23,095 bases of DNA from an uncultured archaeon (GCA_964645535.1 CAZYCQ010000052.1:1-23095); one strand, 5' to 3'; shown: positions 1 to 22,948, counted from the first letter of the stretch. Numbers and translations: made by a program. The notes: generated from the letters alone by a model not told the origin.

Positions 1-551
1 GGATCCCATGGTTTGAAACGTGGATGTTTCAATCCGAATTGTCCGAGGATTTTGGCAACAATGAAGTCTACAAGGTCGTCAACTGTTTTTGGATGATAAT
101 AAAATCCGGGAGCAGCAGGCATAATGACTGCACCAGCTTCTTTCAGTTGTGTGAGGTTTCGAAGATGAATAAGATTCAAGGGGGTTTCACGGAAGAGAAG
201 AACCAATTTTCTTCCTTCTTTGAGCATGCAATCGGCAGCCCTATGGATTAGATTCTGCGTATACCCTGTGGAAATGGCAGCAATTGTCTTCATTGAACAG
301 GGAGCGATAACCATTCCTTCATTTTGGTGAGAACCGGAAGCAATAGGAGCAGCGATATCATTCACATCATATTGGATCTGGACTTGGTTGAGTACATTTT
401 CATAGGAAGGACCAACCTCCAACTCAAGAACTCGTTTTGCGGCAGGTGAAACGACGATTTCCGGTTCATGTCCCAATTGAAGGAGAGTTTCGATCAATCG
501 AAGTCCATATTGGGCACCAGAACCTCCGGTCATGCCTACAATGATTTTCAT
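1..551 (-). CDS. ubiX: UbiX-family flavin prenyltransferase (3' end runs off the window)
   Basis: Not in the supplied ORF track. Manual translation from ATG at 551 gives MKIIVGMTGGSGAQYGLRLIE...IAAPIASGS...MVIAPCSMKTIAAISTGYTQNLIHRAADCMLKEGRKLVLLFRETPLNLIHLRN...IMPAAPGFY, containing the diagnostic UbiX/Pad1 motifs. Confidence 0.96.
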   Translation of the reverse strand, partial: MKIIVGMTGGSGAQYGLRLIETLLQLGHEPEIVVSPAAKRVLELEVGPSYENVLNQVQIQYDVNDIAAPIASGSHQNEGMVIAPCSMKTIAAISTGYTQNLIHRAADCMLKEGRKLVLLFRETPLNLIHLRNLTQLKEAGAVIMPAAPGFYYHPKTVDDLVDFIVAKILGQFGLKHPRFKPWD

Positions 552-654: not shown

Positions 655-1242
655 ATGGTTTTTGTGACAGAAGGAATAGATGAATATCTGAACCAAGAAG
701 AAAACGTGGAATTTCTTCCAATGCAGTGTCCAGCATGTGGCAATGAAGATGCCAAGCTGATCCAACGGTTGTTGCAGATTCCATATTATGACGATTTCCA
801 TATGATTTCTTTTTTCTGCAAGAAATGCGGGCTCCGCAAAACAGATTTTGCCAATATCAACTCGAAAGGGCATACTCGTTATGAATACTTTGTGGAAAAT
901 CTTGAGGATTTCACTACGAAAGTGGTCCGGGCGGAAAATGGAGTGGTTACAATTCCAGAATTGGGTGTCAAGATTGAGCCAGCCAGAAATCCGCAGACAT
1001 GGATCAGAAATGTTGAGGGAATTCTGTTGGACATTAAGGAAAAGGTGGGATATGCAAGGGATATGGCAGAAACAGAGGATCAGAGGAAGGCTGCAATTGA
1101 ACGGTTGAAATTGATTGATGAGGCATTGGAAGGGAAGGTACCGTTTACGATCATTGTTGAAGATGTCACAGGAAACAGCATCATCATTCCTGCAAAAAAA
1201 GAGAAACTGAAAATAGAAATTCTAGAGGGATCATCCGAGTAG
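655..1242 (+). CDS. zpr1: ZPR1 zinc-finger protein (single-domain archaeal type)
   Basis: Two CxxC pairs (CPACG, CKKCG), IPYY, TIPELGVKIEP, NVEGIL and FTIIVEDVTGNSII match the ZPR1 zinc finger plus A/B domain. Confidence 0.93.
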   Translation: MVFVTEGIDEYLNQEENVEFLPMQCPACGNEDAKLIQRLLQIPYYDDFHMISFFCKKCGLRKTDFANINSKGHTRYEYFVENLEDFTTKVVRAENGVVTIPELGVKIEPARNPQTWIRNVEGILLDIKEKVGYARDMAETEDQRKAAIERLKLIDEALEGKVPFTIIVEDVTGNSIIIPAKKEKLKIEILEGSSE

Positions 1243-1614
1243 TTGTTCAAGTCGTTCAATGCGGGAAACAAGGGTATCAATGGTCTCTTGAAGAGATTTA
1301 ATGGTATTTTCCAGCTGTTCGATCTTTTTCAGTTGTTCTGGGGAAGAGTCATCATCTTTGGTTTCTTTCTCCAACAGATGGGGAAATTGGTTCATCAGAT
1401 TGTCCATCAGCATTTTGAATTGGAGGTCATTGAGAACGATACGTGTTTCTCCAAGAATATTTTTCAGTTTTTTTTCGAGAAAGTTGGCAGTCATCTGCGG
1501 TAAAGGTTCTTCAGCCTCAACATTTCCATTCAGCTTGATACGGACATACCACATGCCTCCATCCTGTTCTACAACAGTCTCGTACTTTGTGCCCATTATC
1601 TTGGTGGAATACAT
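1231..1614 (-). CDS. Hypothetical protein, 127 aa, with C-terminal coiled coil
   Basis: Clean ORF with ATG start, co-oriented with and 49 bp downstream of vps25. Heptad-repeat tail LKKIEQLENTIKSLQETIDTLVSRIERLEQLLG. Confidence 0.8.
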   Translation of the reverse strand: MYSTKIMGTKYETVVEQDGGMWYVRIKLNGNVEAEEPLPQMTANFLEKKLKNILGETRIVLNDLQFKMLMDNLMNQFPHLLEKETKDDDSSPEQLKKIEQLENTIKSLQETIDTLVSRIERLEQLLG

Positions 1615-1663: not shown

Positions 1664-2353
1664 TTAAAAGATAAATTCGATGGCATCTTCTTCCTTGGAG
1701 ACGAATTGAGCCTTTCCTTCTGCCACAAATTTTCTTAGGATCTCTTTCAGATCCTCATCGGGGAGCGAACTCCAATCGGTATCCATATTCTTGAATTCAA
1801 GGAAGGTCAGTACTTCGGCAGCCTTTCCAGTGTCCAAGAGGTATTGATATATTTCATCAGCCCATTGATCAATGGGCTTATAATAAATTCTTGCCAGAAT
1901 CTTGTTTTCATCCAACCATTTTGCAATGCCTTCATCAACCATTGAATCAATGATTGCTGTGAGTTGGGGAAGAGTCAAGGCTTTGCCGTTTTTGCGGTTA
2001 CGGAATGGATGTTCTCTTTGCAACTCGATCAGGTTGACAATATGCTTGACAAATATCCTGCAATAATCGAGAAGGAGAGTTTTCCATCCCTCAATCCAAG
2101 AATTCAGTTGGGCAGGGTTGGAAGGTTTGATGTACATCCATGGTTTGTTGACCCAAGATGGAATCTGTTGCTCAAAGAGTATCTCTGGAGTAATTTTTGT
2201 AACTTGGGACGGCTCTTTCAAAGTCTCTTGGGGTGGCTCCTTCAGAGTTTCTTGAGGAGTTTCCAAAGGCTGTTCCACAACTTTGTCTTCTTTCTGTTTT
2301 TCCAGAGGTTCATCCTTCTTCTGGTATTTTTTTGCCCGTTCCTTGATTGACAT
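1664..2353 (-). CDS. vps25: ESCRT-II subunit Vps25 (tandem winged helix) with N-terminal low-complexity extension
   Basis: PSWVNKPWMY...WKTLLLDYCR...PFRN...EGIAKWLDENK...YKPIDQWADEIYQY...VLTFLEF...EGKAQFV aligns by eye with eukaryotic VPS25 (WCSLVLSFCR, LFNN, EWLDKSK, RRPEEWGKLIYQW, VFTLYEL). Start taken as ATG 2353, 1 nt after the vps4 stop, with GGAG upstream. Confidence 0.9.
   Translation of the reverse strand: MSIKERAKKYQKKDEPLEKQKEDKVVEQPLETPQETLKEPPQETLKEPSQVTKITPEILFEQQIPSWVNKPWMYIKPSNPAQLNSWIEGWKTLLLDYCRIFVKHIVNLIELQREHPFRNRKNGKALTLPQLTAIIDSMVDEGIAKWLDENKILARIYYKPIDQWADEIYQYLLDTGKAAEVLTFLEFKNMDTDWSSLPDEDLKEILRKFVAEGKAQFVSKEEDAIEFIF
2207..2254 (-). repeat. Two tandem 24-bp coding repeats (QETLKEPP / QETLKEPS) within the vps25 N-terminal extension
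   Basis: Minus-strand units caagaaactctgaaggagccaccc and caagagactttgaaagagccgtcc, 19/24 identical. Confidence 0.85.
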
Positions 2354-2354
2354 A

Positions 2355-3506
2355 TCAGCCAGCTCCATATTCTCGATCCCATTCCTCAAACCGTTGCAGT
2401 TCATCCAAGCTGACGGATGATTTCACATTTGCCAATGCAGTCAGGAAATCGTCTTGGGTGACTTTTCTGGCCTTGATGCTAGGATCTGAGATAGCTCCCT
2501 TTGCATCAAGTTCACGTATGGGTATGAATATCGCTTCACGACAGATGGTGGCAATGTCTGAGCCAGAGTAATTTTCGGTCAGTCGGGCCAATTCGGCAAA
2601 ATCTACAGATGAATCAAGCTCAACACCCTTGGTGTTTACTTCAAAGATTTTCTTTCTTGCCTCAAAATCCGGAACGGGAACATATATCCTCCGTTCAAAT
2701 CGACGTCGAAAGGCGGAATCTATTTCCCAAGGGATGTTGGTTGCACCTATGGTCACAACCCGTTGGGAAGGGTCACTGGTCAGTCCTTCCATGCTTGTCA
2801 GGAGTTGTGTCTTGATACGTCGCATGGCATCGTTTTCAGTTCCCCCACGGGCTTGGGTCAGGGAATCCACCTCATCTATGAAGATGATGCTTGGTTGCTT
2901 TTCTTTTGCCATCTCATAAAGTCGTTTGACCAATTTTTCGGATTCACCCAACCATTTGCTGACCAGATGAGCAGCAGAGATATTGAAGAAGGTTGCATCG
3001 ATATTTCCGGCAGTTGCCTTTGCAATCATTGTCTTTCCACATCCAGGTGGTCCAAAGAGGAGAATGCCTTTCCAAGGTCTACGTGCACCGGTAAACAGAT
3101 CAGGTCGCATCAGTGGCAGAACAATGGCTTCTCTGAGAGCGATCTTCACGTCGTCAAGTCCTGCAACATCGTCCAACGTGACATCTGGTTTCTCTGTCAC
3201 GATTGCATCTGCCAATGCATCATCAAGCTCTGATTCCTCATCATCACCACCCCCCTTTCCTGTTCGGGCAGGCCTGCTAGATTTTTTCATCTGCTTTTTC
3301 AGATCCTTGGCTCTTGCCACATAGGATTTTGCCCTGCTCTGATAGGTTTCAACAAGTCGAGGATTGCTTGTGAATTTTGTCATCTCAACCAAGATCTCTG
3401 CTGCCTGGAGGTAATGGTTGATTGCTTCTCCGTACTGACCCTTGTTGTCAGCTTCGACAGCCATTTTGGCAAAATGCTGGGCTCTGGCGTAAAGATTTGA
3501 ACTCAC
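2355..3506 (-). CDS. vps4: Vps4 AAA+ ATPase with N-terminal MIT domain
   Basis: MIT-like AVEADNKGQYGEAINHYLQAAEIL; Walker A GPPGCGKT; pore loop SKWLGESEKLVK; Walker B IIFIDEVD; SRH ATNIPWEIDSAFRRRFERRIY; C-terminal EEWDREYG. The ORF is open to 3527; GTG at 3506 with GGTGAT upstream is the preferred start, which is uncertain. Confidence 0.96.
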   Translation of the reverse strand: MSSNLYARAQHFAKMAVEADNKGQYGEAINHYLQAAEILVEMTKFTSNPRLVETYQSRAKSYVARAKDLKKQMKKSSRPARTGKGGGDDEESELDDALADAIVTEKPDVTLDDVAGLDDVKIALREAIVLPLMRPDLFTGARRPWKGILLFGPPGCGKTMIAKATAGNIDATFFNISAAHLVSKWLGESEKLVKRLYEMAKEKQPSIIFIDEVDSLTQARGGTENDAMRRIKTQLLTSMEGLTSDPSQRVVTIGATNIPWEIDSAFRRRFERRIYVPVPDFEARKKIFEVNTKGVELDSSVDFAELARLTENYSGSDIATICREAIFIPIRELDAKGAISDPSIKARKVTQDDFLTALANVKSSVSLDELQRFEEWDREYGAG

Positions 3507-3569
3507 TGATATCACCATTCGTTTCACAAATTTATATTGTTACCATTCCCGTATGTCGGAAAGCACAAG

Positions 3570-4292
3570 TTAACCCAAGGCAGGGAACCAATATTTCTTC
3601 CCTTCCGAGTAGTCATCATCGAGAAGGGCAATTCCATCTTCGACCATTGAGTCCAAGGCACGGGTAGCCCGTTCCATAGGCCATTTTGTTTTCATCAGAA
3701 CCTCTTCGAGAGTCACGGCTCCTCCGCGTCTTGCAGCAAGGGACAAAATCTTTTCCTGATCTTTTGAAAGATCGACGGCAACAAACTCGACGATCAATGT
3801 ACCAGAATCCAGTTTCTTGAGGTCTTGGATCAATCCGGATTTCTTTAGGGATTCCAAGGCTTTGATTACGTCCTTGGGTGAAACGATCTTTCCGGGTCGG
3901 GTTTTGTTAAGGCGAAGAGTTACCTCTGCGGCAGACATCAATCCCCCAGTTTCCCGTAACGCATCTTTGCCAATTTGCAACACCTCATTTGCAAGTTCAT
4001 CATAGTATCCCTTGCCGGTAAGTTTATCCACAAAACTGGGTTTCTCTTTCCAATCATAGACACCTACCTCTTCAGGAAGACCAAGTTCCCTTCTGAATTC
4101 CGCCAATTTTTCATAATATTCACGGTTTTCCTTGATCTTCTTCCCATGCTTCTTTTCGAATTCCTTGAGTTGCTTTTCCAACTTACGGTAGTTCTGGATG
4201 AGCAAATCCAGTTCAGTAAGCATCATTTCGGCTTCTTTTTCCTGGTATGCACTTTTCATGCGGATTTTGCGCTCGATGTCTCGAAGACCCAT
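3570..4292 (-). CDS. vps22: ESCRT-II Vps22/36-like (EAP30 domain) protein
   Basis: GYYDELANEVLQI, GGLMS, VSPKDVIKALESL, DLSKDQEKILSLA, KWPMERATRALDSMVEDGIALLD and YWFPAL align by eye with SNF8/Vps22 (FYYELGVQII, GGLIT, VSQDDLIRAIKKL, KWETERA, YWLPAL). Start taken as ATG 4292, 1 nt after the vps28 stop. Confidence 0.93.
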   Translation of the reverse strand: MGLRDIERKIRMKSAYQEKEAEMMLTELDLLIQNYRKLEKQLKEFEKKHGKKIKENREYYEKLAEFRRELGLPEEVGVYDWKEKPSFVDKLTGKGYYDELANEVLQIGKDALRETGGLMSAAEVTLRLNKTRPGKIVSPKDVIKALESLKKSGLIQDLKKLDSGTLIVEFVAVDLSKDQEKILSLAARRGGAVTLEEVLMKTKWPMERATRALDSMVEDGIALLDDDYSEGKKYWFPALG

Positions 4293-4293
4293 T

Positions 4294-4926
4294 TCAACCA
4301 CCGATTTTGCGGATCTGGTTCCTGAATTCATTCAGCCACCGAGATGCATCAAATTCAAGCTGTTCAGCATCCTCTTCTGAGAGAAGCTTGCTGGGGCTTT
4401 CTTCAAGGAGAGCTTTTCTCCATCCATCGATTTCTACAGCTACCCAATGATCTTGACCGAAGTTGGGGAAGTCCTTGACAATATTGAACATTTCATCAAG
4501 GAGAGGAACAATCATTTCAACCCTTGCAATCGACCTCAGTCTGAGAACATCGATAAGTTCAATTGCGTTTGCGACATAGTCCGCAGATTTTGCAGGAAGA
4601 TCCTTAAGCTTTTGGAGGGACAGGGAGATGTCTTCCTCCTTTTCAAGACCTTGGACAAGGTTAAGGCGTTTTACACCTTCAGGGAATTTTTCGTCCAGTT
4701 TCCGTTCGTTTATGAATTCCTCCATGCTAAAGCCGTTCTCTTCCAAAGCCATCTGGGCCTTGAATACATCAGAGATCGCGGCCTTCATTTGCCTGCGGTA
4801 CAGGGTTTCCTCTACCATACCCCTGTCGAAATGCTTAGCCAACCGGTCAATGGTAGCTATGGCTGCATACAGGTCAGCCTTATGATCTAATGGGCTCTTT
4901 TGCCTTCGTCTTGTTTGATATGACAT
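4294..4926 (-). CDS. vps28: ESCRT-I subunit Vps28
   Basis: ADLYAAIATIDRLAKHF, ADYVANAIELIDVLRL, IVPLLDEM and LSEEDAEQLEFDASRWLNEF match eukaryotic VPS28 (AELFAVVKTMQALEKAY, ADVVSLFITVMDKLRL, LDDSQVRQMLFDLESAYNAF). GGAGG lies upstream of ATG 4926. Confidence 0.92.
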   Translation of the reverse strand: MSYQTRRRQKSPLDHKADLYAAIATIDRLAKHFDRGMVEETLYRRQMKAAISDVFKAQMALEENGFSMEEFINERKLDEKFPEGVKRLNLVQGLEKEEDISLSLQKLKDLPAKSADYVANAIELIDVLRLRSIARVEMIVPLLDEMFNIVKDFPNFGQDHWVAVEIDGWRKALLEESPSKLLSEEDAEQLEFDASRWLNEFRNQIRKIGG

Positions 4927-5638
4927 GTGTTTCAATTCCTCCTTTCAGCTCTGCAAGTTTTTCCGCGGTTTTGAACCATTCTGCGGAATAATGCTTGAAT
5001 AGTCTGAAGAAATCAGTTTGGTCAATTTCGGCCTCTTCGAACTTGAAGTCAAGCAATTCCAAGAGATCTTCCAATGCCATCAATTCCGCCTTCAGTTCCT
5101 TTTCAGGGGATACATTAGGCAATTTCTGGAGATCAAAGCCTTGTTTCTTGAAAGAGGCTTCCAATTGTTGCCTTCCCTGTGCTTCCAGCAGGGCAAGTTC
5201 CTTTTGCAAGCTTTCGACCTGTGCAGCAAGTCTTTCCAATTCCGTATCCGTGATGGTCGGGGATGCTTGCACCTGAACAGGTGTCTGAGTTGGTGTTTTT
5301 CTCTGGGCAAGATTCCTGCTGTGAATGAACAGTCGGCGTGCAGCAGAGATGATGTCCTTGACACGGTAGCTGGGTTCCCATTCGGCAAGCAATTGAAGAT
5401 CCAAGTTTCCATCATTATCGACGTTGGGATGGCTCATCGAGGGAGATACCTTAACTACAGGCTTGACTATTGGATAGAATTCGGGGAATTCGATTCGAAT
5501 GCGAATGTCTTCACCCGTCGCAAGCCGTCCCACCTTCCCTACGAAAATGCGTCCATTGGGATCATCTTGGTAAAACGTGGGCTCATTTTTAGCAAGGTAC
5601 TTGCGCTCTTCTTTAAGCACTTTGTCAAAGTCTACCAT
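4880..5638 (-). CDS. vps23: ESCRT-I Vps23/TSG101-like protein: UEV domain, Pro/Thr linker, coiled-coil stalk and steadiness box
   Basis: UBC-fold motifs FPEFYPIVKP, HPNVDNDGNLDL (no catalytic Cys) and WEPSYRVKDII; linker TPTQTPVQVQASPT; coiled coil; C-terminal ALEDLLELLDFKFEEAEIDQTDFFRLFKHYSAEWF resembling the TSG101 steadiness box. Confidence 0.9.
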   Translation of the reverse strand: MVDFDKVLKEERKYLAKNEPTFYQDDPNGRIFVGKVGRLATGEDIRIRIEFPEFYPIVKPVVKVSPSMSHPNVDNDGNLDLQLLAEWEPSYRVKDIISAARRLFIHSRNLAQRKTPTQTPVQVQASPTITDTELERLAAQVESLQKELALLEAQGRQQLEASFKKQGFDLQKLPNVSPEKELKAELMALEDLLELLDFKFEEAEIDQTDFFRLFKHYSAEWFKTAEKLAELKGGIETHVISNKTKAKEPIRS

Positions 5639-5667: not shown

Positions 5668-5675
5668 TTAATAAA
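5668..5675 (-). promoter_or_regulatory. Putative archaeal TATA box of the ESCRT operon
   Basis: TTTATTAA on the minus strand ends 29 nt upstream of the vps23 ATG. Confidence 0.55.
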
Positions 5676-5888: not shown

Positions 5889-8105
5889 GTGCGTTCCATA
5901 TTTCTTATTCTCTTATTGACTAGTGGGTTCATGTTTGTTGAGAATGGCAATCCACAGGTATTGACGAAACAATATTCACCACATTCAGTAAATGCAGTAC
6001 CAATCCTTGAATCAAGGGATCAGATCATTCCAATAGGGGAAAAGGTGTTGTTCCAGCCATTTTATTGGAATATGCCGGACAGAGGAACCCATTGGAGAAT
6101 GCTTGGAGACAATATTGATGAGATCACGAGCCAAGGATTTGATTCCCTTTGGCTACCCCCACCACAGAAAACAAGAGAAGGCTATCCTGCGACAGGAGGG
6201 TACGAACCATATGATTACTATGATTTGGGAAGCTATGATCAGAAGGGAAGAATAAGAACGTTATTTGGGACTCAAGAGGAGCTGACCAACTTGATTTCCC
6301 TAGCCAATGCCAATGGCATCGGAGTGATTGCAGATGTTGTCATCAATCACCGAGTGGGAGGGGATCTTGAGTATAATCCATTCACTCAATCAGAAACACC
6401 CACCAACTTCATGAATGTTGCCAGCGGTAGACTTAGAATGAATTACACCCATTTTTGGCCAAACCAGTACGGAAATGGAGACGCCGGTCAATACGGGGAT
6501 TTTCCCGATATTTCACATGCCAATCCTGAAGTTAGACAGATGTTTCTGGAATGGGCGCAATGGTTGACAACGGAGATTGGATATGACGGGTTCAGATTTG
6601 ATTCAGCTCAGTTTATTGATCCAACCATGATACGCGATTGGATGCAGGCAATAGGAGGAGGGGCATTCGGAGTAAGTGAATATTGGATGTATACTCCAGA
6701 TCCAGACGAAGTGCTTGGATACCTCCGTGAGGCAAATGACACAACAAGAGCCATGGATTTTGCTCTTCTTGAGGCGATGAGACTAATCCTCAATGCAAAT
6801 GGAACAGGAGACCTACGAAACCTAGTAACACAGGGAATCTCCAACATTGAACCCTCAAAGGCCGTTACATTCGTAGTAAACCATGACACTTACAGGGATA
6901 AATTCGACGTGATTGAGGAAAGACGCCATCTCGGCTATGGATACATCATGACTCATCCAGGATACCCTTCCGTTTTCTATATGGATTACATCGACCCAAA
7001 CCTCAGAAACACCATTCTTCAGCTTGTGAAGATCCATAACCGGCATGCAAAGGGTAATCTCACCCATCTGTATGTTGATCAAGACCTGTATATTTCCCAA
7101 AGGGACGGAAATGGCACTGTTGAAGGACTATTGTTTGGCATGAATGACAGAATGGAAGGTGAGAGATCAGCCATGGTTACCACTCGATGGAAGGAAACAA
7201 AGCTCTATAATCTTCTTAATGGAACAGATGTAGTTTGGACAGATGCTCAGGGAAATACTACAGTGACTGTTCCAGCAAATGAATTTGTGATCTATTCTCC
7301 AGACCCCAGCTTTATCAGGAAAATTGATCTTAGGATTCCGAAAAAGGAATTTGATTATGGAGAAGCCCTGATGTATAAGGATATTGCCATTGATGGAGAG
7401 TTAGATTGGGAATGGGGGTTGCCCAATGCAATAGACCATATAGAAACAAACCAGATCACAGACCTGACCAATTTGTATTTTGGTCATGATGGAAAAAACC
7501 TGCTGACGGCATTTGCCTATATTAATCTCTATAACTGGACAGAAGGTCCTGTTGATTTCGAGATCATTCTGGATACTAGGGAAGGAGGAAGCAATCTCCA
7601 CCCAATCAGGGAAAATGTCAGGTTTGGAGGGAGATCGAGATTGCCTGATGAGATTTTTGTTTTCAAGACAGATTTTGCATCCAATGGATATCACAGGATA
7701 ATTAAAGAAATTACCAGATATTCATTTCAAAATGGATGGAAAAAAAGTGTGGTTCCCACCATTCAATTCGAGACACATCCAATGATGGGACTTGTGGAAG
7801 TGGCAATTCCGTTTGCGGATTTAGGTAGCGATGAACGGAACAAGATTTCTGTCAAGGTAGTAAGTGCATTGAGTGGATCCCAAAACGTGCAGGATAGCGT
7901 ACCAACTGATACAACAATAGACGAGAATTCCCTGAGTTGGCTGTTTATGGAGGATTTGGTTGAATTACCCCCTCAAGAGACAACCAGCGACTTGTCTTCA
8001 ACCCCTTCCCCATTTTCGACCACCATGAGACAGACACTGACAATCACCTATTGGATACCCATTTTTGGATTGATAGTGAGATATACATTGAAAAGAAAGC
8101 GTTGA
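5889..8105 (+). CDS. Secreted, membrane-anchored GH13 alpha-amylase (Thermococcales-like catalytic domain) with C-terminal DOMON/CBM-like domain
   Basis: Signal peptide; GYEPYDYYDLG; conserved regions DVVINH, GFRFD, EYW and FVVNHDT; IAIDGELD/IILDTREGG domain; Ser/Thr-rich linker; hydrophobic segment followed by KRKR. Confidence 0.92.
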   Translation: MRSIFLILLLTSGFMFVENGNPQVLTKQYSPHSVNAVPILESRDQIIPIGEKVLFQPFYWNMPDRGTHWRMLGDNIDEITSQGFDSLWLPPPQKTREGYPATGGYEPYDYYDLGSYDQKGRIRTLFGTQEELTNLISLANANGIGVIADVVINHRVGGDLEYNPFTQSETPTNFMNVASGRLRMNYTHFWPNQYGNGDAGQYGDFPDISHANPEVRQMFLEWAQWLTTEIGYDGFRFDSAQFIDPTMIRDWMQAIGGGAFGVSEYWMYTPDPDEVLGYLREANDTTRAMDFALLEAMRLILNANGTGDLRNLVTQGISNIEPSKAVTFVVNHDTYRDKFDVIEERRHLGYGYIMTHPGYPSVFYMDYIDPNLRNTILQLVKIHNRHAKGNLTHLYVDQDLYISQRDGNGTVEGLLFGMNDRMEGERSAMVTTRWKETKLYNLLNGTDVVWTDAQGNTTVTVPANEFVIYSPDPSFIRKIDLRIPKKEFDYGEALMYKDIAIDGELDWEWGLPNAIDHIETNQITDLTNLYFGHDGKNLLTAFAYINLYNWTEGPVDFEIILDTREGGSNLHPIRENVRFGGRSRLPDEIFVFKTDFASNGYHRIIKEITRYSFQNGWKKSVVPTIQFETHPMMGLVEVAIPFADLGSDERNKISVKVVSALSGSQNVQDSVPTDTTIDENSLSWLFMEDLVELPPQETTSDLSSTPSPFSTTMRQTLTITYWIPIFGLIVRYTLKRKR

Positions 8106-9317
8106 TTATCGGGTCAAATCCAAGTAATCATCTTCATCATCAAAAAAGATTTCTTCATCAAGAACCTCTTCCAAGGTCAACTGATCATCTGCAATCTCGG
8201 GTTCAGTCAGGACTTGGAACTTGCTGGATTTCAAGAGCTTTGTTTTGACAATGTGATTGATCGAATCCATAACCTGAGAAATATCCTGCTCATTAAAGCT
8301 TGAAATGAAATGGACATTGTGATCGAGATCCACCACCATTGAATGGGACGAAACAAAATCGATAACCTGCCGTTCGATTTGCCTACGTTCCTCATCATTG
8401 ATGAGATCCACCTTGTTAACAACCAGAAGAAGTTCCGCCTGCGGATAGAAGTCCGCAAATTCCTCCACTAGCCGCAGCTGTTGCTCTACAGGATACGTTG
8501 CGGATATTGAGGGATCGATGATCACCAAGAGGATATCACTGATATGCTTAAGAGCTGCAATTGCCATCAGTTCGATTTCGTTCCTTTCCTTCAGGGATCT
8601 GTCAAGTATTCCAGGCGTATCGCAGAACTGAACCGTAACAAAACCGAATTTCCGATGTCCAAATACAAGCCGTTTGGTTGTGAAGGGATATGAGCCGATA
8701 TTCGGCTTCCCGGAAGTGGCATTGCGTACAAAAGATGATTTGCCAACATTAGGGACACCAGCAACAACCACACTGGGTTGCATGGGATTGAACCCGGGGA
8801 GGGATGAAAGAGTCTCATGAGCACGTCTCAGAACCTCCAAATGAGGTTCAATCTGATAGATAATGCTGGAGAAACGACCGAATGCCGCAGTCCGCAATTC
8901 GATATTCTGTGTTTTCGTGAAAGTATTGTTCAGGGCTTCATTGATTTCATTTTCGATATCGCGAATCAGGTGAACCGTCCCTTGGAGACCACCTAAAGCC
9001 TTTCTCAAGTTGTCCACACCGTTTGAGCTTTTTGGATCTGCCAAGAGAATGCTTGCCAATTCCAGATAGAGGGGATGGACAGAGTTTAAGGAGGGAAATT
9101 GCGAGATAATGCGCTGAAGACGATCTGCAAGAACATTTGCTGCCGTGTTGACACGGTTTCGCTCGTATTCCCGGTTCTTGACCAGAGGTTCAGCACCCCT
9201 GAGTTGAGGAGGTGCGATCTTCATGGCCCTACCAAAAGCCAGATCCAAGAGTTCTTGGGCACTTTCAATCCGGCTGACCTTGGCAAACGGATTCGCACCT
9301 GCCAGTTCCATTGTCAT
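8106..9317 (-). CDS. nog1: NOG1-family (OBG-like) GTP-binding protein
   Basis: G1 GVPNVGKSS, G2 YPFTT, G3 DTPGILDR, ERNEIE, G4 NKVD, helical N-terminal domain (FPSL..HPLYLEL, AFGRFSS) and acidic tail. Start is ATG 9317 or 9311. Confidence 0.93.
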   Translation of the reverse strand: MTMELAGANPFAKVSRIESAQELLDLAFGRAMKIAPPQLRGAEPLVKNREYERNRVNTAANVLADRLQRIISQFPSLNSVHPLYLELASILLADPKSSNGVDNLRKALGGLQGTVHLIRDIENEINEALNNTFTKTQNIELRTAAFGRFSSIIYQIEPHLEVLRRAHETLSSLPGFNPMQPSVVVAGVPNVGKSSFVRNATSGKPNIGSYPFTTKRLVFGHRKFGFVTVQFCDTPGILDRSLKERNEIELMAIAALKHISDILLVIIDPSISATYPVEQQLRLVEEFADFYPQAELLLVVNKVDLINDEERRQIERQVIDFVSSHSMVVDLDHNVHFISSFNEQDISQVMDSINHIVKTKLLKSSKFQVLTEPEIADDQLTLEEVLDEEIFFDDEDDYLDLTR

Positions 9318-9410
9318 CAAAATTTGGTTAATTTCGTGGATATTAAGATGAATGGTAATGACACTCCGCAAGAGGATAGGTTTAATAGATCGAGATTCAA
9401 TGAAGGAGTG

Positions 9411-21339: not shown

Positions 21340-21846
21340 ATTGTTATCTATGTAGTAGATACCTCCTCACTTATCGCATTCAATGAGTTTTACCAAAAAC
21401 AAATGACACCGAAAATCTGGCAATGTTTTGAGAACCTCATCGCAAACGGCAAGGTGATAATTCCCAAAGATGTCGAGCTCGAGCTTGTGAAGGATTCGGA
21501 GGTGAAAGAACTGGTGAAAAAACATCCCAAAATCGTCCAAGATACTGTAGAAATGGCGGATGAACTTACGAAGGTCATGCGGGATTTTCCTTATATCCCA
21601 CCACGCAACCGAACCAAAGAAACCTACGCGGATCCCGTGGTCATAGCCTTGGCACTATCAATCATAAAACAAGGATCCCTTGTGGAACGCAAGGTTTTTG
21701 TCGTCAGTCAGGAGACAAGCAGGAAAAGCTACAGCATCCCAAGTATGTGCAAGCATTATGACATACCCCTTATCAGCATTCAGGATTTAATTAGACAAAA
21801 TTGTGAGGAATCTACGAAATCTAAATCAAGTACAGAAGTGCAATAG
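21340..21846 (+). CDS. DUF4411-like PIN-domain protein (putative nuclease toxin); start codon non-canonical or lost
   Basis: In-frame YVVDTSSLI upstream of ATG 21403, then IWQCFENLIANGKVIIPKDVELEL, ADPVVIALA, VVSQE and IPSMCKHYDI. Confidence 0.82.
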   Translation: MVIYVVDTSSLIAFNEFYQKQMTPKIWQCFENLIANGKVIIPKDVELELVKDSEVKELVKKHPKIVQDTVEMADELTKVMRDFPYIPPRNRTKETYADPVVIALALSIIKQGSLVERKVFVVSQETSRKSYSIPSMCKHYDIPLISIQDLIRQNCEESTKSKSSTEVQ

Positions 21847-21850
21847 GAAT

Positions 21851-22948
21851 ATGGGCGCTAAGATGGTCGATGTCGATGTCAATGTGGTGATCAAGATCAT
21901 CGACCAATCAAACAAAAGAGATGAGCTGCCGAAGCAATTGAAACAGTTGCTCCCGGAATGGGAATCCGGAAAGAAAAAACCCACCATCTCACAATTGAGA
22001 ATCCTGGCAAGATCCCTCAAGCGTCCTTTCGCCGAATTTTTCATGCAAGAACCGTTACCCGATCCCTCTGCCGACACAAGGCGTTACAGGTTCAACGATA
22101 CAATCCCCCTTAGTTTCAAAAGCAGCCTTGCCATACGAGACGCAAATGCACATCTGGAAGAGCTTGTGGAATTGTTGGAAGAACCCATTGCAATCCTTCC
22201 AAAGGCAAGCATCAAGGACGACCCAAAAACAATTGCCGAAACCTTGAAGCAGAAATTCAAATTGCACATTGCCAGAAAAAACGCAAAGGACAAAAGAGAA
22301 TATTTCAAAATCGTTCGGAATATTCTAGAAAACAACGGGATATTCGTCTTCCAATATTCACTCCCCCTTGATGAATTGAGAGGATTCAGCATCTGGAACG
22401 ACAAAGCCGCAGTTATAGCATGCAGCACCAAAGACGAACCTGAATCAAGAACATTCACCCTCATGCATGAACTGGGACATCTCATCCTCCGTAACCATGG
22501 AATATGTGACATCCAGCTGAAAGTCGAATGGAATGACGTCGAAACATGGTGCAACAGATTTGCAGGATACATCCTCATCGATATCAATGAAACATTGAAG
22601 CAGGAAATAACCAGAAAACTGAAAGAATTGAACATAGGAAAAGTCGTCGAGAAATATGCCAGCCATTTCAAAGTAAGCAAGGCCGCAATCGCAAAGCAAC
22701 TTGAAATCATTAAACTCATCAGCCACCAAGAATTCATTGAATACATGAAAAGACCTTATCCAGAAAAAAGAAAAAAAGGAGGAACTGGACAGCATGCATA
22801 TGAAAAAACTCTCAACAGGTTCGGAGCAAACTACATCAACATGATCCTTGAAGGATATGACCAGAAAAAACTGTCACTCATCCATACCATGCAAATCCTC
22901 GACCTAAAAAAAAGAAAGGATTTCAACATGCTTCTTGAAACACTCTAG
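21851..22948 (+). CDS. XRE-type HTH plus ImmA/IrrE (peptidase M78, COG2856) metallopeptidase
   Basis: WESGKKKPTISQLRILA...PFAEFF HTH remnant; LRGFS; RTFTLMHELGH (HExxH); ETWCNRFAGYILI; FKVSKAA. Confidence 0.92.
   Translation: MGAKMVDVDVNVVIKIIDQSNKRDELPKQLKQLLPEWESGKKKPTISQLRILARSLKRPFAEFFMQEPLPDPSADTRRYRFNDTIPLSFKSSLAIRDANAHLEELVELLEEPIAILPKASIKDDPKTIAETLKQKFKLHIARKNAKDKREYFKIVRNILENNGIFVFQYSLPLDELRGFSIWNDKAAVIACSTKDEPESRTFTLMHELGHLILRNHGICDIQLKVEWNDVETWCNRFAGYILIDINETLKQEITRKLKELNIGKVVEKYASHFKVSKAAIAKQLEIIKLISHQEFIEYMKRPYPEKRKKGGTGQHAYEKTLNRFGANYINMILEGYDQKKLSLIHTMQILDLKKRKDFNMLLETL

Follow-up and report, generated by a model that had tools for sequence, protein, structure and literature searches.

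What does a run of five eukaryote-like genes in an archaeal contig represent: a minimal, self-contained ESCRT operon or one part of a larger and already known system? The locus lies in a window of 23,095 nucleotides, which is the entire contig of a Heimdallarchaeia MAG whose relatives carry the label Ca. Heimdallarchaeota, in agreement with the Asgard origin first proposed for it. The ORF listing and Pfam searches confirm five adjoining minus-strand genes running from 5638 to 1664, and these limits coincide exactly with the vps23 ATG and the vps25 stop:

4880..5638, minus strand: vps23, 252 aa, ESCRT-I (Pfam, orthologues, AF2)
4294..4926, minus strand: vps28, 210 aa, full length, ESCRT-I (PF03997)
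3570..4292, minus strand: vps22-like EAP30 gene, 240 aa, ESCRT-II (PF04157)
2355..3506, minus strand: vps4, 383 aa from GTG 3506, MIT, AAA+ and Vps4_C
1664..2353, minus strand: vps25, 229 aa, ESCRT-II (PF05871)

Four of the five genes score above the Pfam cut-offs, and the remaining one, vps23, draws support from its orthologues and from an AF2 model. All five family assignments of the preliminary description stand on Pfam, PDB matches and orthologues; the profile search that had been set beforehand as their test returned the ESCRT families. The reading frames of all five genes are unbroken, so the array has no introns, as had been claimed. The locus is a genuine eukaryote-like ESCRT gene cluster of a Heimdall-group Asgard archaeon.

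Vps23 is predicted to consist of a UEV domain (residues 1–106), a disordered linker, a stalk helix (131–165), a steadiness-box-like helical hairpin (178–231) and a tail (232–252) that is encoded by the overlap with vps28 and predicted to be disordered in the AF2 model (mean pLDDT 83; hairpin above 90). The protein scores 49 bits with UQ_con, 21.6 bits with UEV and 17.9 bits with Vps23_core, the last value falling below the Pfam cut-off of 26.8 bits. Its orthologues match UQ_con in 21 of 21 cases, UEV in 16 and Vps23_core in 8 (best Vps23_core value of 8e-5). A fold search with the model returned E2/UEV folds and, with the UEV domain dominating the results, gave no structural match to a solved ESCRT-I core. 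The HPN motif is kept, and alignment with E2 structures places HPNVDNDGNLDL opposite HPNVDQSGNICL, showing that the catalytic Cys is replaced by Asp. The active-site column lacks Cys in all 21 Vps23 orthologues of the class, and the E2s of the source genome itself retain it. The UEV domain of Vps23 is an E2 fold that lacks the catalytic cysteine, and in every orthologue this conserved Cys-less UEV is joined to a putative ESCRT-I core. Its partner Vps28 aligns with PF03997 over profile positions 2–186 of 188 (53.9 bits) and combines an N-terminal core and a C-terminal four-helix domain in one chain. Searches with the class Vps28 profile match the CTD of Vps28 (2j9w, 1e-8) and the core of yeast Vps28 (about 5e-3), and the MSYQ start is common to the other aligned orthologues of families f1, f4 and f7.

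The Vps22-like protein matches PF04157 at 95.3 bits over profile positions 2–219 of 219, that is, over almost its whole length, with a helical N-terminal region followed by two winged helices. Pfam finds no PH/GLUE domain, no zinc finger and no domain besides EAP30, and 24 class members share the conserved MGLRxIE start. Its PDB matches (70.5 bits with SNF8 versus 37.3 bits with Vps36) indicate a protein clearly nearer Vps22/SNF8 than Vps36, and not intermediate between them. Identity with Vps36 was considered and rejected, the 240 residues being EAP30 nearly end to end and GLUE/split-PH being absent. Vps25 begins with a variable low-complexity stretch of about 55 aa that includes a PQETLKEP tandem repeat; the LPxWVNKPWMY motif, which is conserved, and a pair of winged helices come after it. 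This tandem winged-helix core matches PF05871 (76.7 bits) and solved Vps25 structures (9uyv, 3e-18; Odinarchaeal Vps25 7pb9, 1.6e-16; human Vps25 3cuq_C, 1.6e-11).

By family, the predicted Vps4 is the ESCRT AAA+ ATPase, with MIT (PF04212; residues 14–78 of the long ORF), a single AAA+ cassette and Vps4_C. Pfam scores are 49.9 bits for MIT, 145 for AAA, 48.8 for AAA_lid_3 and 35.8 for Vps4_C; the translation contains a Walker A (GPPGCGKT), a Walker B (IIFIDEVD) and a pore loop (KWLGESE), and a single end-to-end match aligns it with yeast Vps4 5uie at 310 bits. All four members of the genus compared have the same GTG start, and one of them (G046) has an in-frame TAG just upstream. It is the sole Vps4-type ATPase of the genome, the remaining matches being Cdc48-like.

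The genes are tightly packed, in line with the junctions of the preliminary description: vps23 and vps28 are two separate ORFs overlapping by 47 nt, single-nucleotide spacers (TGA-N-ATG) separate vps28 from vps22 and vps4 from vps25, and a gap of 63 nt (51 nt to ATG 3518) precedes the conserved GTG 3506 of vps4. The SD-like motifs and the TATA box that had been announced are also found, together with further signals and a neighbouring gene:

5668..5675, minus strand: TATA-like TTTATTAA, 29 nt ahead of the vps23 ATG, putative promoter element
4938..4942, minus strand: SD-like GGAGG, 11 nt ahead of the vps28 ATG, within the vps23 coding region
4298-4302, minus strand: SD-like GGTGG, ahead of vps22
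3530..3537, minus strand: TATA-like ATATAAAT, in the vps22–vps4 spacer, 23 nt ahead of the vps4 GTG, putative promoter element
3512-3516, minus strand: SD-like GGTGA, ahead of vps4
2363-2366, minus strand: SD-like GGAG, ahead of vps25
1231..1614, minus strand: cc127, 127 aa, C-terminal coiled coil, without family assignment
1194..1200, minus strand: T7 oligo-T run, about 30 nt beyond the cc127 stop, terminator-like

The vps23 start has no SD motif upstream, so that its transcript is probably leaderless or very short-leadered. In the vps22–vps4 spacer, three of four genus members have an A/T-rich box at the same position. ATATAAAT, though no more than such a conserved box, is a candidate for an internal promoter of vps4–vps25. 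The tight coupling of the genes is compatible with co-transcription of the array, and the modules described below are probably expressed from a promoter ahead of vps23, with read-through, and from the candidate internal vps4 promoter. The T7 run is the first sense-strand oligo-T run downstream of the vps23 promoter; between the vps23 ATG and the cc127 stop, a span of 4,408 nt, the sense strand contains no T5+ run, which is not significant, 8.6% of shuffles behaving likewise. The co-directional cc127 gene has its own TATA-like box (1645–1636), without SD, is present in one copy in 41 of the 47 genomes of the order and, in the loci read outside this genus, lies away from ESCRT genes, adjoining topoisomerase/Sua5 or EF-2/S10. 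The gene probably does not belong to the ESCRT system.

A gene-order survey of 40 loci in the class Heimdallarchaeia recovers two modules, vps23–vps28–vps22 and vps4–vps25, arranged in tandem, convergently or unlinked depending on the lineage. The first is co-directional in five of seven families (the contigs of f6 are too short to tell), with vps22 about 5 kb off on the opposite strand in f2 and vps23–vps28 fused in one family; the second is adjacent nearly everywhere. Among the loci surveyed, the exact order of the five genes is confined to this genus, where three genomes have it. Other genera and families have vps4–vps25 inverted or detached from the first module, which favours reading the array as a pair of modules over reading it as one fixed operon. 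The suggestion that the arrangement might be unknown does not hold: it occurs in public MAGs and amounts to a local rearrangement of the modules in Makarova 2024. The window order is a genus-level reshuffle of the usual layout of a published system.

The rest of the genome shows that the system extends well beyond the five genes. A second EAP30 paralogue (contig C25; 222 aa, EAP30 only), which matches Vps22 structures and not Vps36, adjoins a Vps23_core-like, steadiness-box-like gene, and a second UEV–coiled-coil–hairpin paralogue (contig C9) has a weak Mod_r match (E 0.0028). Across the class, genomes have two UEV matches except in two families, and all 83 have at least one EAP30 match, most of them two to four. 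A ubiquitin cluster on contig C22 comprises two Ub-like genes, a ThiF E1, an E2, JAB and RING, and contig C42 contains two Snf7-family (ESCRT-III) genes with acidic, Leu-rich, MIM-like C-termini, so the source genome holds the genome-level Ub-ESCRT set of an ESCRT-III pair, ubiquitin and E1/E2/E3. A single contig of the sister genome G045 reads vps25–cc127–ZPR1–flavoprotein–...–topoisomerase–MeaB–ESCRT-IIIB–ESCRT-IIIA; it follows that the window and C42 abut and that the ESCRT-III genes lie about 7–8 kb past vps25 in convergent orientation. In G046, of the same genus, the ESCRT-III pair directly follows vps25. The ESCRT system of the source genome is not minimal. Two claims of the preliminary description are therefore set aside: one undifferentiated Vps22/36 is contradicted by the SNF8 and Vps36 scores and by the second EAP30 gene, and a minimal state by that gene, the second UEV and the complete Ub/E1/E2/RING/JAB cluster.

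The system of the window is already known from the literature as the Asgard ubiquitin-ESCRT (Hatano 2022; Makarova 2024; Lu 2023). UEV–ubiquitin binding, a Vps22 dimer, a yeast two-hybrid interaction of Vps25 with ESCRT-IIIB and the co-location of vps25 with vps4 and ESCRT-III were reported by Hatano 2022 (PMC9192718). Lu 2023 (bioRxiv 10.1101/2023.07.25.550441) described the UEV-Vps23 family and a UEV_X paralogue and found that in Kari-, Gerd- and Heimdallarchaeia the ubiquitin genes do not cluster with UEV-Vps23; for UEV-Vps23 proteins of other Asgard archaea, ubiquitin binding and Vps28 assembly have been published (Hatano 2022; Lu 2023). The two co-directed Asgard groups of Makarova 2024 (PMC10936438), vps25–vps4–ESCRT-III and vps22–vps23–vps28, are both recovered in the window and across the class, but this genus joins them head to tail in one co-directional array, and a local inversion has moved the ESCRT-III pair out of the vps4 group, G046 being different in this respect. 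Like the window, Ca. Odinarchaeum yellowstonii LCB_4 (PMC9192718) has separate UEV-Vps23 and Vps28, one clustered Vps22-like protein, Vps25 (7pb9, the match given above) and Vps4. However, its cluster includes ubiquitin, ubiquitylation enzymes and ESCRT-III, whereas in the source genome the Ub genes are on another contig and ESCRT-III is distant and on the opposite strand; the N-terminal low-complexity stretch of the window Vps25 is extra relative to the Odin protein. Heimdallarchaeota genomes of the AB_125 type (Hatano 2022; Lu 2023), of the same order as the window (genome search, family f3), have the same components with Vps22 directly downstream of the ESCRT-I gene(s). In contrast to the two overlapping genes of the window, their Vps23–Vps28 is one ORF of 466–490 aa, and vps4–vps25 plus the ESCRT-III pair converge on vps22 instead of following it in tandem with ESCRT-III not beside them.

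Comparison with eukaryotic ESCRT (ESCRT-I of Vps23, Vps28, Vps37 and Mvb12; ESCRT-II of Vps22, Vps36 and two Vps25) shows matching architectures for Vps23 (a predicted UEV–stalk–hairpin), Vps28 (core plus CTD), Vps22, Vps25 and Vps4, with significant sequence matches to human and yeast structures. However, the window genes form a prokaryotic array, and the source genome is without a Vps36 with GLUE/PH and without a clear Vps37 or Mvb12. The CdvABC system of Thermoproteota also has a Vps4-type ATPase (CdvC) and ESCRT-III homologues (CdvB), but its loci are without ESCRT-I or ESCRT-II homologues and without UEV, and the window Vps4 differs in having Vps4_C and aligning end to end with yeast Vps4.

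How else might the locus be read? A single obligate five-gene operon for a minimal, pre-eukaryotic ESCRT-I/II, with one undifferentiated Vps22/36 and in a novel arrangement, accounts for the tight junctions, the SD motifs ahead of internal genes, the stretch free of T5+ runs until beyond cc127 and the identical order in three genomes of the genus, yet it is unlikely in view of the paralogues elsewhere in the genome, the Vps22-like character of the EAP30 protein, the mobility of vps4–vps25 between lineages, the conserved TATA-like box ahead of vps4 and the presence of locus and system in public MAGs and the literature. That the contig is an artefact, either eukaryotic contamination or a chimeric assembly, is almost certainly wrong: no evidence for it was found, although the eukaryote-like ZPR1, NOG1 and ESCRT genes might hint at it on a first look. 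The genes have no introns and stand close together, with SD motifs, EAP30 genes occur throughout the class, and the contig is not chimeric because the NOG1-to-flavoprotein order recurs in independent sister MAGs. It also seems highly improbable that ribosomes shift by +1 within the 47-nt overlap and so make a Vps23–Vps28 fusion in addition to the separate proteins. The overlap is always 2 mod 3 and vps28 in the +1 frame at all f1 and f4 loci, and in the sister family a linker of about 12 aa joins the two proteins in one ORF of about 470–490 aa, which such a shift would mimic; but in-frame indels trivially give a constant frame relation, neither a slippery nor a stimulatory element was identified, vps28 comes with a strong SD and an ATG of its own, and disorder is predicted for the part of Vps23 that the overlap encodes.

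The literature has not settled what Asgard ESCRT does in the cell, be it sorting, vesicle or protrusion scission, division or repair. Machinery that serves mainly to divide the cell, or to cut and repair membranes in general, as the Cdv system does in TACK archaea, and in which ubiquitin recognition plays a secondary part or none, would fit the use of Vps4 and ESCRT-III for division in Thermoproteota (PMC5840170, PMC10936438) and the lack of linkage between the ubiquitin genes and the cluster. We regard this as improbable, given the Cys-less UEV on the putative ESCRT-I core of every orthologue, the complete Ub/E1/E2/E3/DUB set of the genome and the measured binding of ubiquitin by Asgard UEV domains (Hatano 2022; Lu 2023). 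Division or scission and ubiquitin-directed roles are not mutually exclusive. Somewhat less remote, though still doubtful, is an ESCRT-I/II supercomplex: because vps22 travels across Heimdallarchaeia with vps23–vps28 and not with its ESCRT-II partner vps25, Vps22 may be built into the ESCRT-I headpiece in place of Vps37, with the paralogues as a parallel adaptor and perhaps, in this genus, a Vps23–Vps28 fusion made possible by the overlap. The N-terminal helical hairpin of Vps22 would then stand in for Vps37, and the adaptor would consist of the second UEV paralogue and the second EAP30/steadiness-box pair.

The locus is, very probably, the ESCRT-I/ESCRT-II/Vps4 part of the Heimdallarchaeia Ub-ESCRT, with the modules as described and a system that is not minimal. 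For its products we infer co-transcription, ubiquitin binding and complex assembly, the mechanistic steps being taken over from homologues on the strength of the protein families and of published Asgard biochemistry. The Cys-less UEV of Vps23 would bind ubiquitylated cargo, and the helical hairpins of Vps23 and Vps28 would make the ESCRT-I headpiece. ESCRT-I would then pass to an ESCRT-II composed of a Vps22 dimer and Vps25, which may nucleate the two ESCRT-III proteins encoded about 7–8 kb away. Finally, the MIT domains of a Vps4 hexamer would bind the C-terminal tails of ESCRT-III, and Vps4 would take the polymer apart.

The array consists of five contiguous minus-strand open reading frames (5647–1664 in the ORF listing) and lies on contig C52 (23,095 bp, the whole window) of G000, a 3.6 Mb genome assembled in 176 contigs and about 89% complete. 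The preliminary description had recognized an Asgard ESCRT-I/II/Vps4 array here, and this identity reading is right, as judged from Pfam, structure matches and orthologues: Pfam upholds all five gene identities, with Vps23_core matching below threshold, and the span originally given, 1664–5638, coincides with the stop codon of vps25 at 1664 and the ATG of vps23 at 5638. Longer starts at TTG 5647, TTG 4935, ATG 4331, GTG 3527 and ATG 2404 were dropped because the downstream starts are the conserved ones. For the four internal genes these are:

4926, minus strand: vps28 start (ATG), from alignment with class relatives
4292, minus strand: vps22 start (ATG), with the motif MGLRxIE kept in 24 sequences of the class alignment
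3506, minus strand: vps4 start (GTG), invariant in four genus members, with an in-frame TAG just upstream in one of them (G046)
2353, minus strand: vps25 start (ATG), from alignment with class relatives

Counted from the conserved starts, vps23 and vps28 overlap by 47 nt, vps22 and vps4 are 63 nt apart, and 1-nt spacers form the other two junctions. Shine–Dalgarno (SD)-like motifs read from the sequence (GGAGG, GGTGG, GGTGA and GGAG) precede the internal genes; vps23 has none and carries a TATA-like TTTATTAA 29 nt upstream. A further TATA-like element, ATATAAAT, is located in the vps22–vps4 spacer, 23 nt ahead of the vps4 GTG, and is kept in three of the four genus members. Sense-strand runs of five or more T are absent from the vps23 ATG to a T7 run 30 nt past cc127, the coiled-coil gene next after vps25; because 8.6% of shuffled sequences also lack them, this is weak evidence for one transcript. 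A scan for bacterial-type promoters and terminators gave counts at the shuffle level and is uninformative for an archaeon.

The vps23 product has UQ_con/UEV matches in addition to the sub-threshold Vps23_core. Its UEV domain retains the HPN motif and bears an Asp at the catalytic Cys position, a column in which Cys occurs in none of 21 orthologues and is kept in the genome's two true E2s. UQ_con matches all 21 orthologues, UEV 16 of the 21 and Vps23_core 8 of the 21. The AF2 model (mean pLDDT 83) predicts the UEV, a disordered linker, a stalk helix (residues 131–165), and a hairpin (178–231, pLDDT >90) followed by a disordered tail; a fold search with it returned E2/UEV folds only, which leaves the steadiness box unconfirmed by this route. 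Vps28 is full length, the Pfam VPS28 match covering nearly the full profile, and its class profile reaches 1e-8 against the solved C-terminal domain and about 5e-3 against the core of the yeast protein. Vps4, the sole Vps4-type ATPase of the genome, shows MIT, AAA, AAA_lid_3 and Vps4_C domains (Pfam) and aligns with yeast Vps4 over its whole length. The vps25 product matches Pfam ESCRT-II (Vps25) as well as Asgard and human Vps25 structures. A variable stretch of ~55 residues precedes its conserved LPxWVNKPWMY motif; the Odinarchaeal and eukaryotic structures of Vps25 lack this N-terminal extension. Within it, a K/E/P-rich region of variable sequence, residues 30–50 (gene at 1664–2353) form a tandem PQETLKEP repeat.

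The overlap between vps23 and vps28 (4880–4926, minus strand), in which vps28 is read in the +1 frame, recurs in all loci of the window genome's own family (f1) and of family f4 (including L030–L035 and L045–L049), with lengths of 26–50 nt that are invariably 2 mod 3. The Vps23 tail that it encodes is predicted to be disordered (AF2). In the sister family f3 the two genes form a single fused ORF of 466–490 aa, and a UEV-Vps23-Vps28 fusion is known from AB_125-type Heimdallarchaeia (bioRxiv 10.1101/2023.07.25.550441). The nearest public loci belong to MAGs labelled Candidatus Heimdallarchaeota (Vps28 identity 57–88%); these labels, together with the AB_125-type fusion in a sister family of the same order, place the genome in the Heimdall supergroup, and possibly, as a more tentative reading, in Kariarchaeaceae.

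To compare gene order, 40 loci around the best EAP30 match were surveyed in genomes spanning every one of the class's seven families, with ORFs classified by iterated profiles. Two modules emerge. The vps23–vps28–vps22 module is co-directional in five families, f3 with its fusion; 1.6–4 kb separate vps28 from vps22 in f5, in f2 vps22 is on the other strand at a distance of ~5 kb, and the f6 contigs are too short for this module to be read. The vps4–vps25 module is adjacent almost everywhere, both genes being absent from the fetched flanks in f7. The modules stand in tandem in the window's genus, f4 and f5, and are convergent in the other f1 genera and f3. The ESCRT-III pair is found ahead of vps4 (f3, f5) or flanked by vps22 and a Cdc48-like gene (f4); within the genus it directly follows vps25 in G046 and lies ~7 kb away in G000, G044 and G045. 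Across the survey, the exact gene order of the window is confined to its genus, where three of the four genomes share it. This picture agrees with published work, in which vps25 is grouped with vps4 plus ESCRT-III, and vps22 accompanies vps23 and vps28 (Makarova 2024, PMC10936438), and in which genes co-locate in the same kind of way (Hatano 2022, PMC9192718). The suggestion that the arrangement might be new was wrong.

The two ESCRT-III genes of the genome, both Snf7-family with acidic, Leu-rich C-termini, are on contig C42. They had appeared to be unlinked to the array, a reading dropped in view of synteny with G045, a single contig of which (C336) carries vps25–cc127–ZPR1–flavoprotein–orf–Band7–topoisomerase–MeaB–ESCRT-IIIB–ESCRT-IIIA. 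As this order equals reversed C52 followed by C42, the contigs abut, with the break just past the flavoprotein gene (window 1–551; C42 left end, locus L003) and ESCRT-III, encoded on the other strand, ~7–8 kb past vps25; if the two genomes are syntenic here, the space between C52 and C42 should measure a few hundred bases. In G046 the intervening block is rearranged, which puts ESCRT-III directly 3′ of vps25.

A co-directional ubiquitin cluster on C22 (L026:2843–8274) comprises two Ub-like genes with N-terminal extensions, a ThiF-type E1, an E2, a JAB deubiquitinase, a RING-finger protein and two proteins without a family; one more Ub-like protein is encoded on C20. The EAP30 protein of the array fits the full Pfam profile with no extra domain and scores 70.5 bits for SNF8 vs 37 bits for Vps36; by its sequence it is Vps22-like. 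The right end of C25 (L027:7857–9190) holds another EAP30 paralogue (222 aa; 52 bits) and, directly after it, a gene that has a Vps23_core-like region and is cut by the contig end; the two may constitute an alternative ESCRT-I/II-like adaptor pair. A second Cys-less UEV protein with coiled coil and hairpin (209 aa; C9, L025:1189–1818) weakly matches Mod_r, the Vps37 family (E 0.0028), and probably corresponds to the 'UEV_X' group defined by Lu et al. 2023 (bioRxiv 10.1101/2023.07.25.550441). EAP30 is found in 83 of 83 class genomes, with two to four matches in most, and UEV matches number two per genome across the class except in f5 and f6. Given these paralogues, the ubiquitin cluster and ESCRT-III elsewhere in the genome, the system is not minimal, and the proposal of a minimal state with an undifferentiated Vps22/36 does not stand.

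The product of cc127 (1231–1614, minus strand) is 127 aa long, has a coiled coil in its C-terminal part and belongs to no family. Across the order, 41 of 47 genomes carry the gene as a single copy; it comes with a TATA-like box of its own but lacks an SD, and an Atlas search with it returned nothing above chance. It adjoins ESCRT genes only in the window's genus, and the loci read elsewhere place it beside topoisomerase/Sua5 or with EF-2 on one side and ribosomal protein S10 on the other; with such unrelated neighbours, its candidacy as a new ESCRT component was dropped. Genes for two eukaryote-signature proteins flank the cluster, a ZPR1-like zinc-finger protein (655–1242, plus strand) and a NOG1-like GTPase (8106–9371, minus strand). 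Between NOG1 and vps23 is a gene (5889–8105, plus strand) whose 738-aa product, of the alpha-amylase family, has a hydrophobic signal-like N-terminal stretch and a hydrophobic C-terminal tail; the gene looks like a recent insertion, since NOG1 is directly upstream of vps23 in G044. Farther away, overlapping genes for DUF4411 (147 aa) and an IrrE/ImmA-type M78 peptidase (381 aa; 21403–22948, plus strand) have an architecture reminiscent of toxin–antitoxin or defence modules.

The observations made here are of sequence features, and a mechanism can be proposed from the protein families and published Asgard biochemistry (PMC9192718; bioRxiv 10.1101/2023.07.25.550441). The UEV of Vps23 would capture ubiquitin, the ESCRT-I headpiece would assemble, ESCRT-II, a putative Vps22 dimer with Vps25, would join, ESCRT-III would be nucleated, and Vps4 would recycle it via its MIT domain. 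Complex prediction of Vps22 with the Vps23 C-terminal half and Vps28 from class alignments (score 0.00, mark 0.32) speaks neither for nor against binding.

The locus belongs to a well-described kind of system and leaves the published view of ESCRT origin unchanged. The cluster alone understates that system, because paralogous EAP30, UEV and steadiness-box genes, a ubiquitin cluster and ESCRT-III are encoded elsewhere in the genome. What is added is modest: a class-wide view of two mobile modules, and one genus that joins both into a single array. Asgard ESCRT-I/II genes are central to the evidence that membrane remodelling directed by ubiquitin is older than eukaryotes, and a correctly annotated Heimdall-group locus is therefore useful for comparison.
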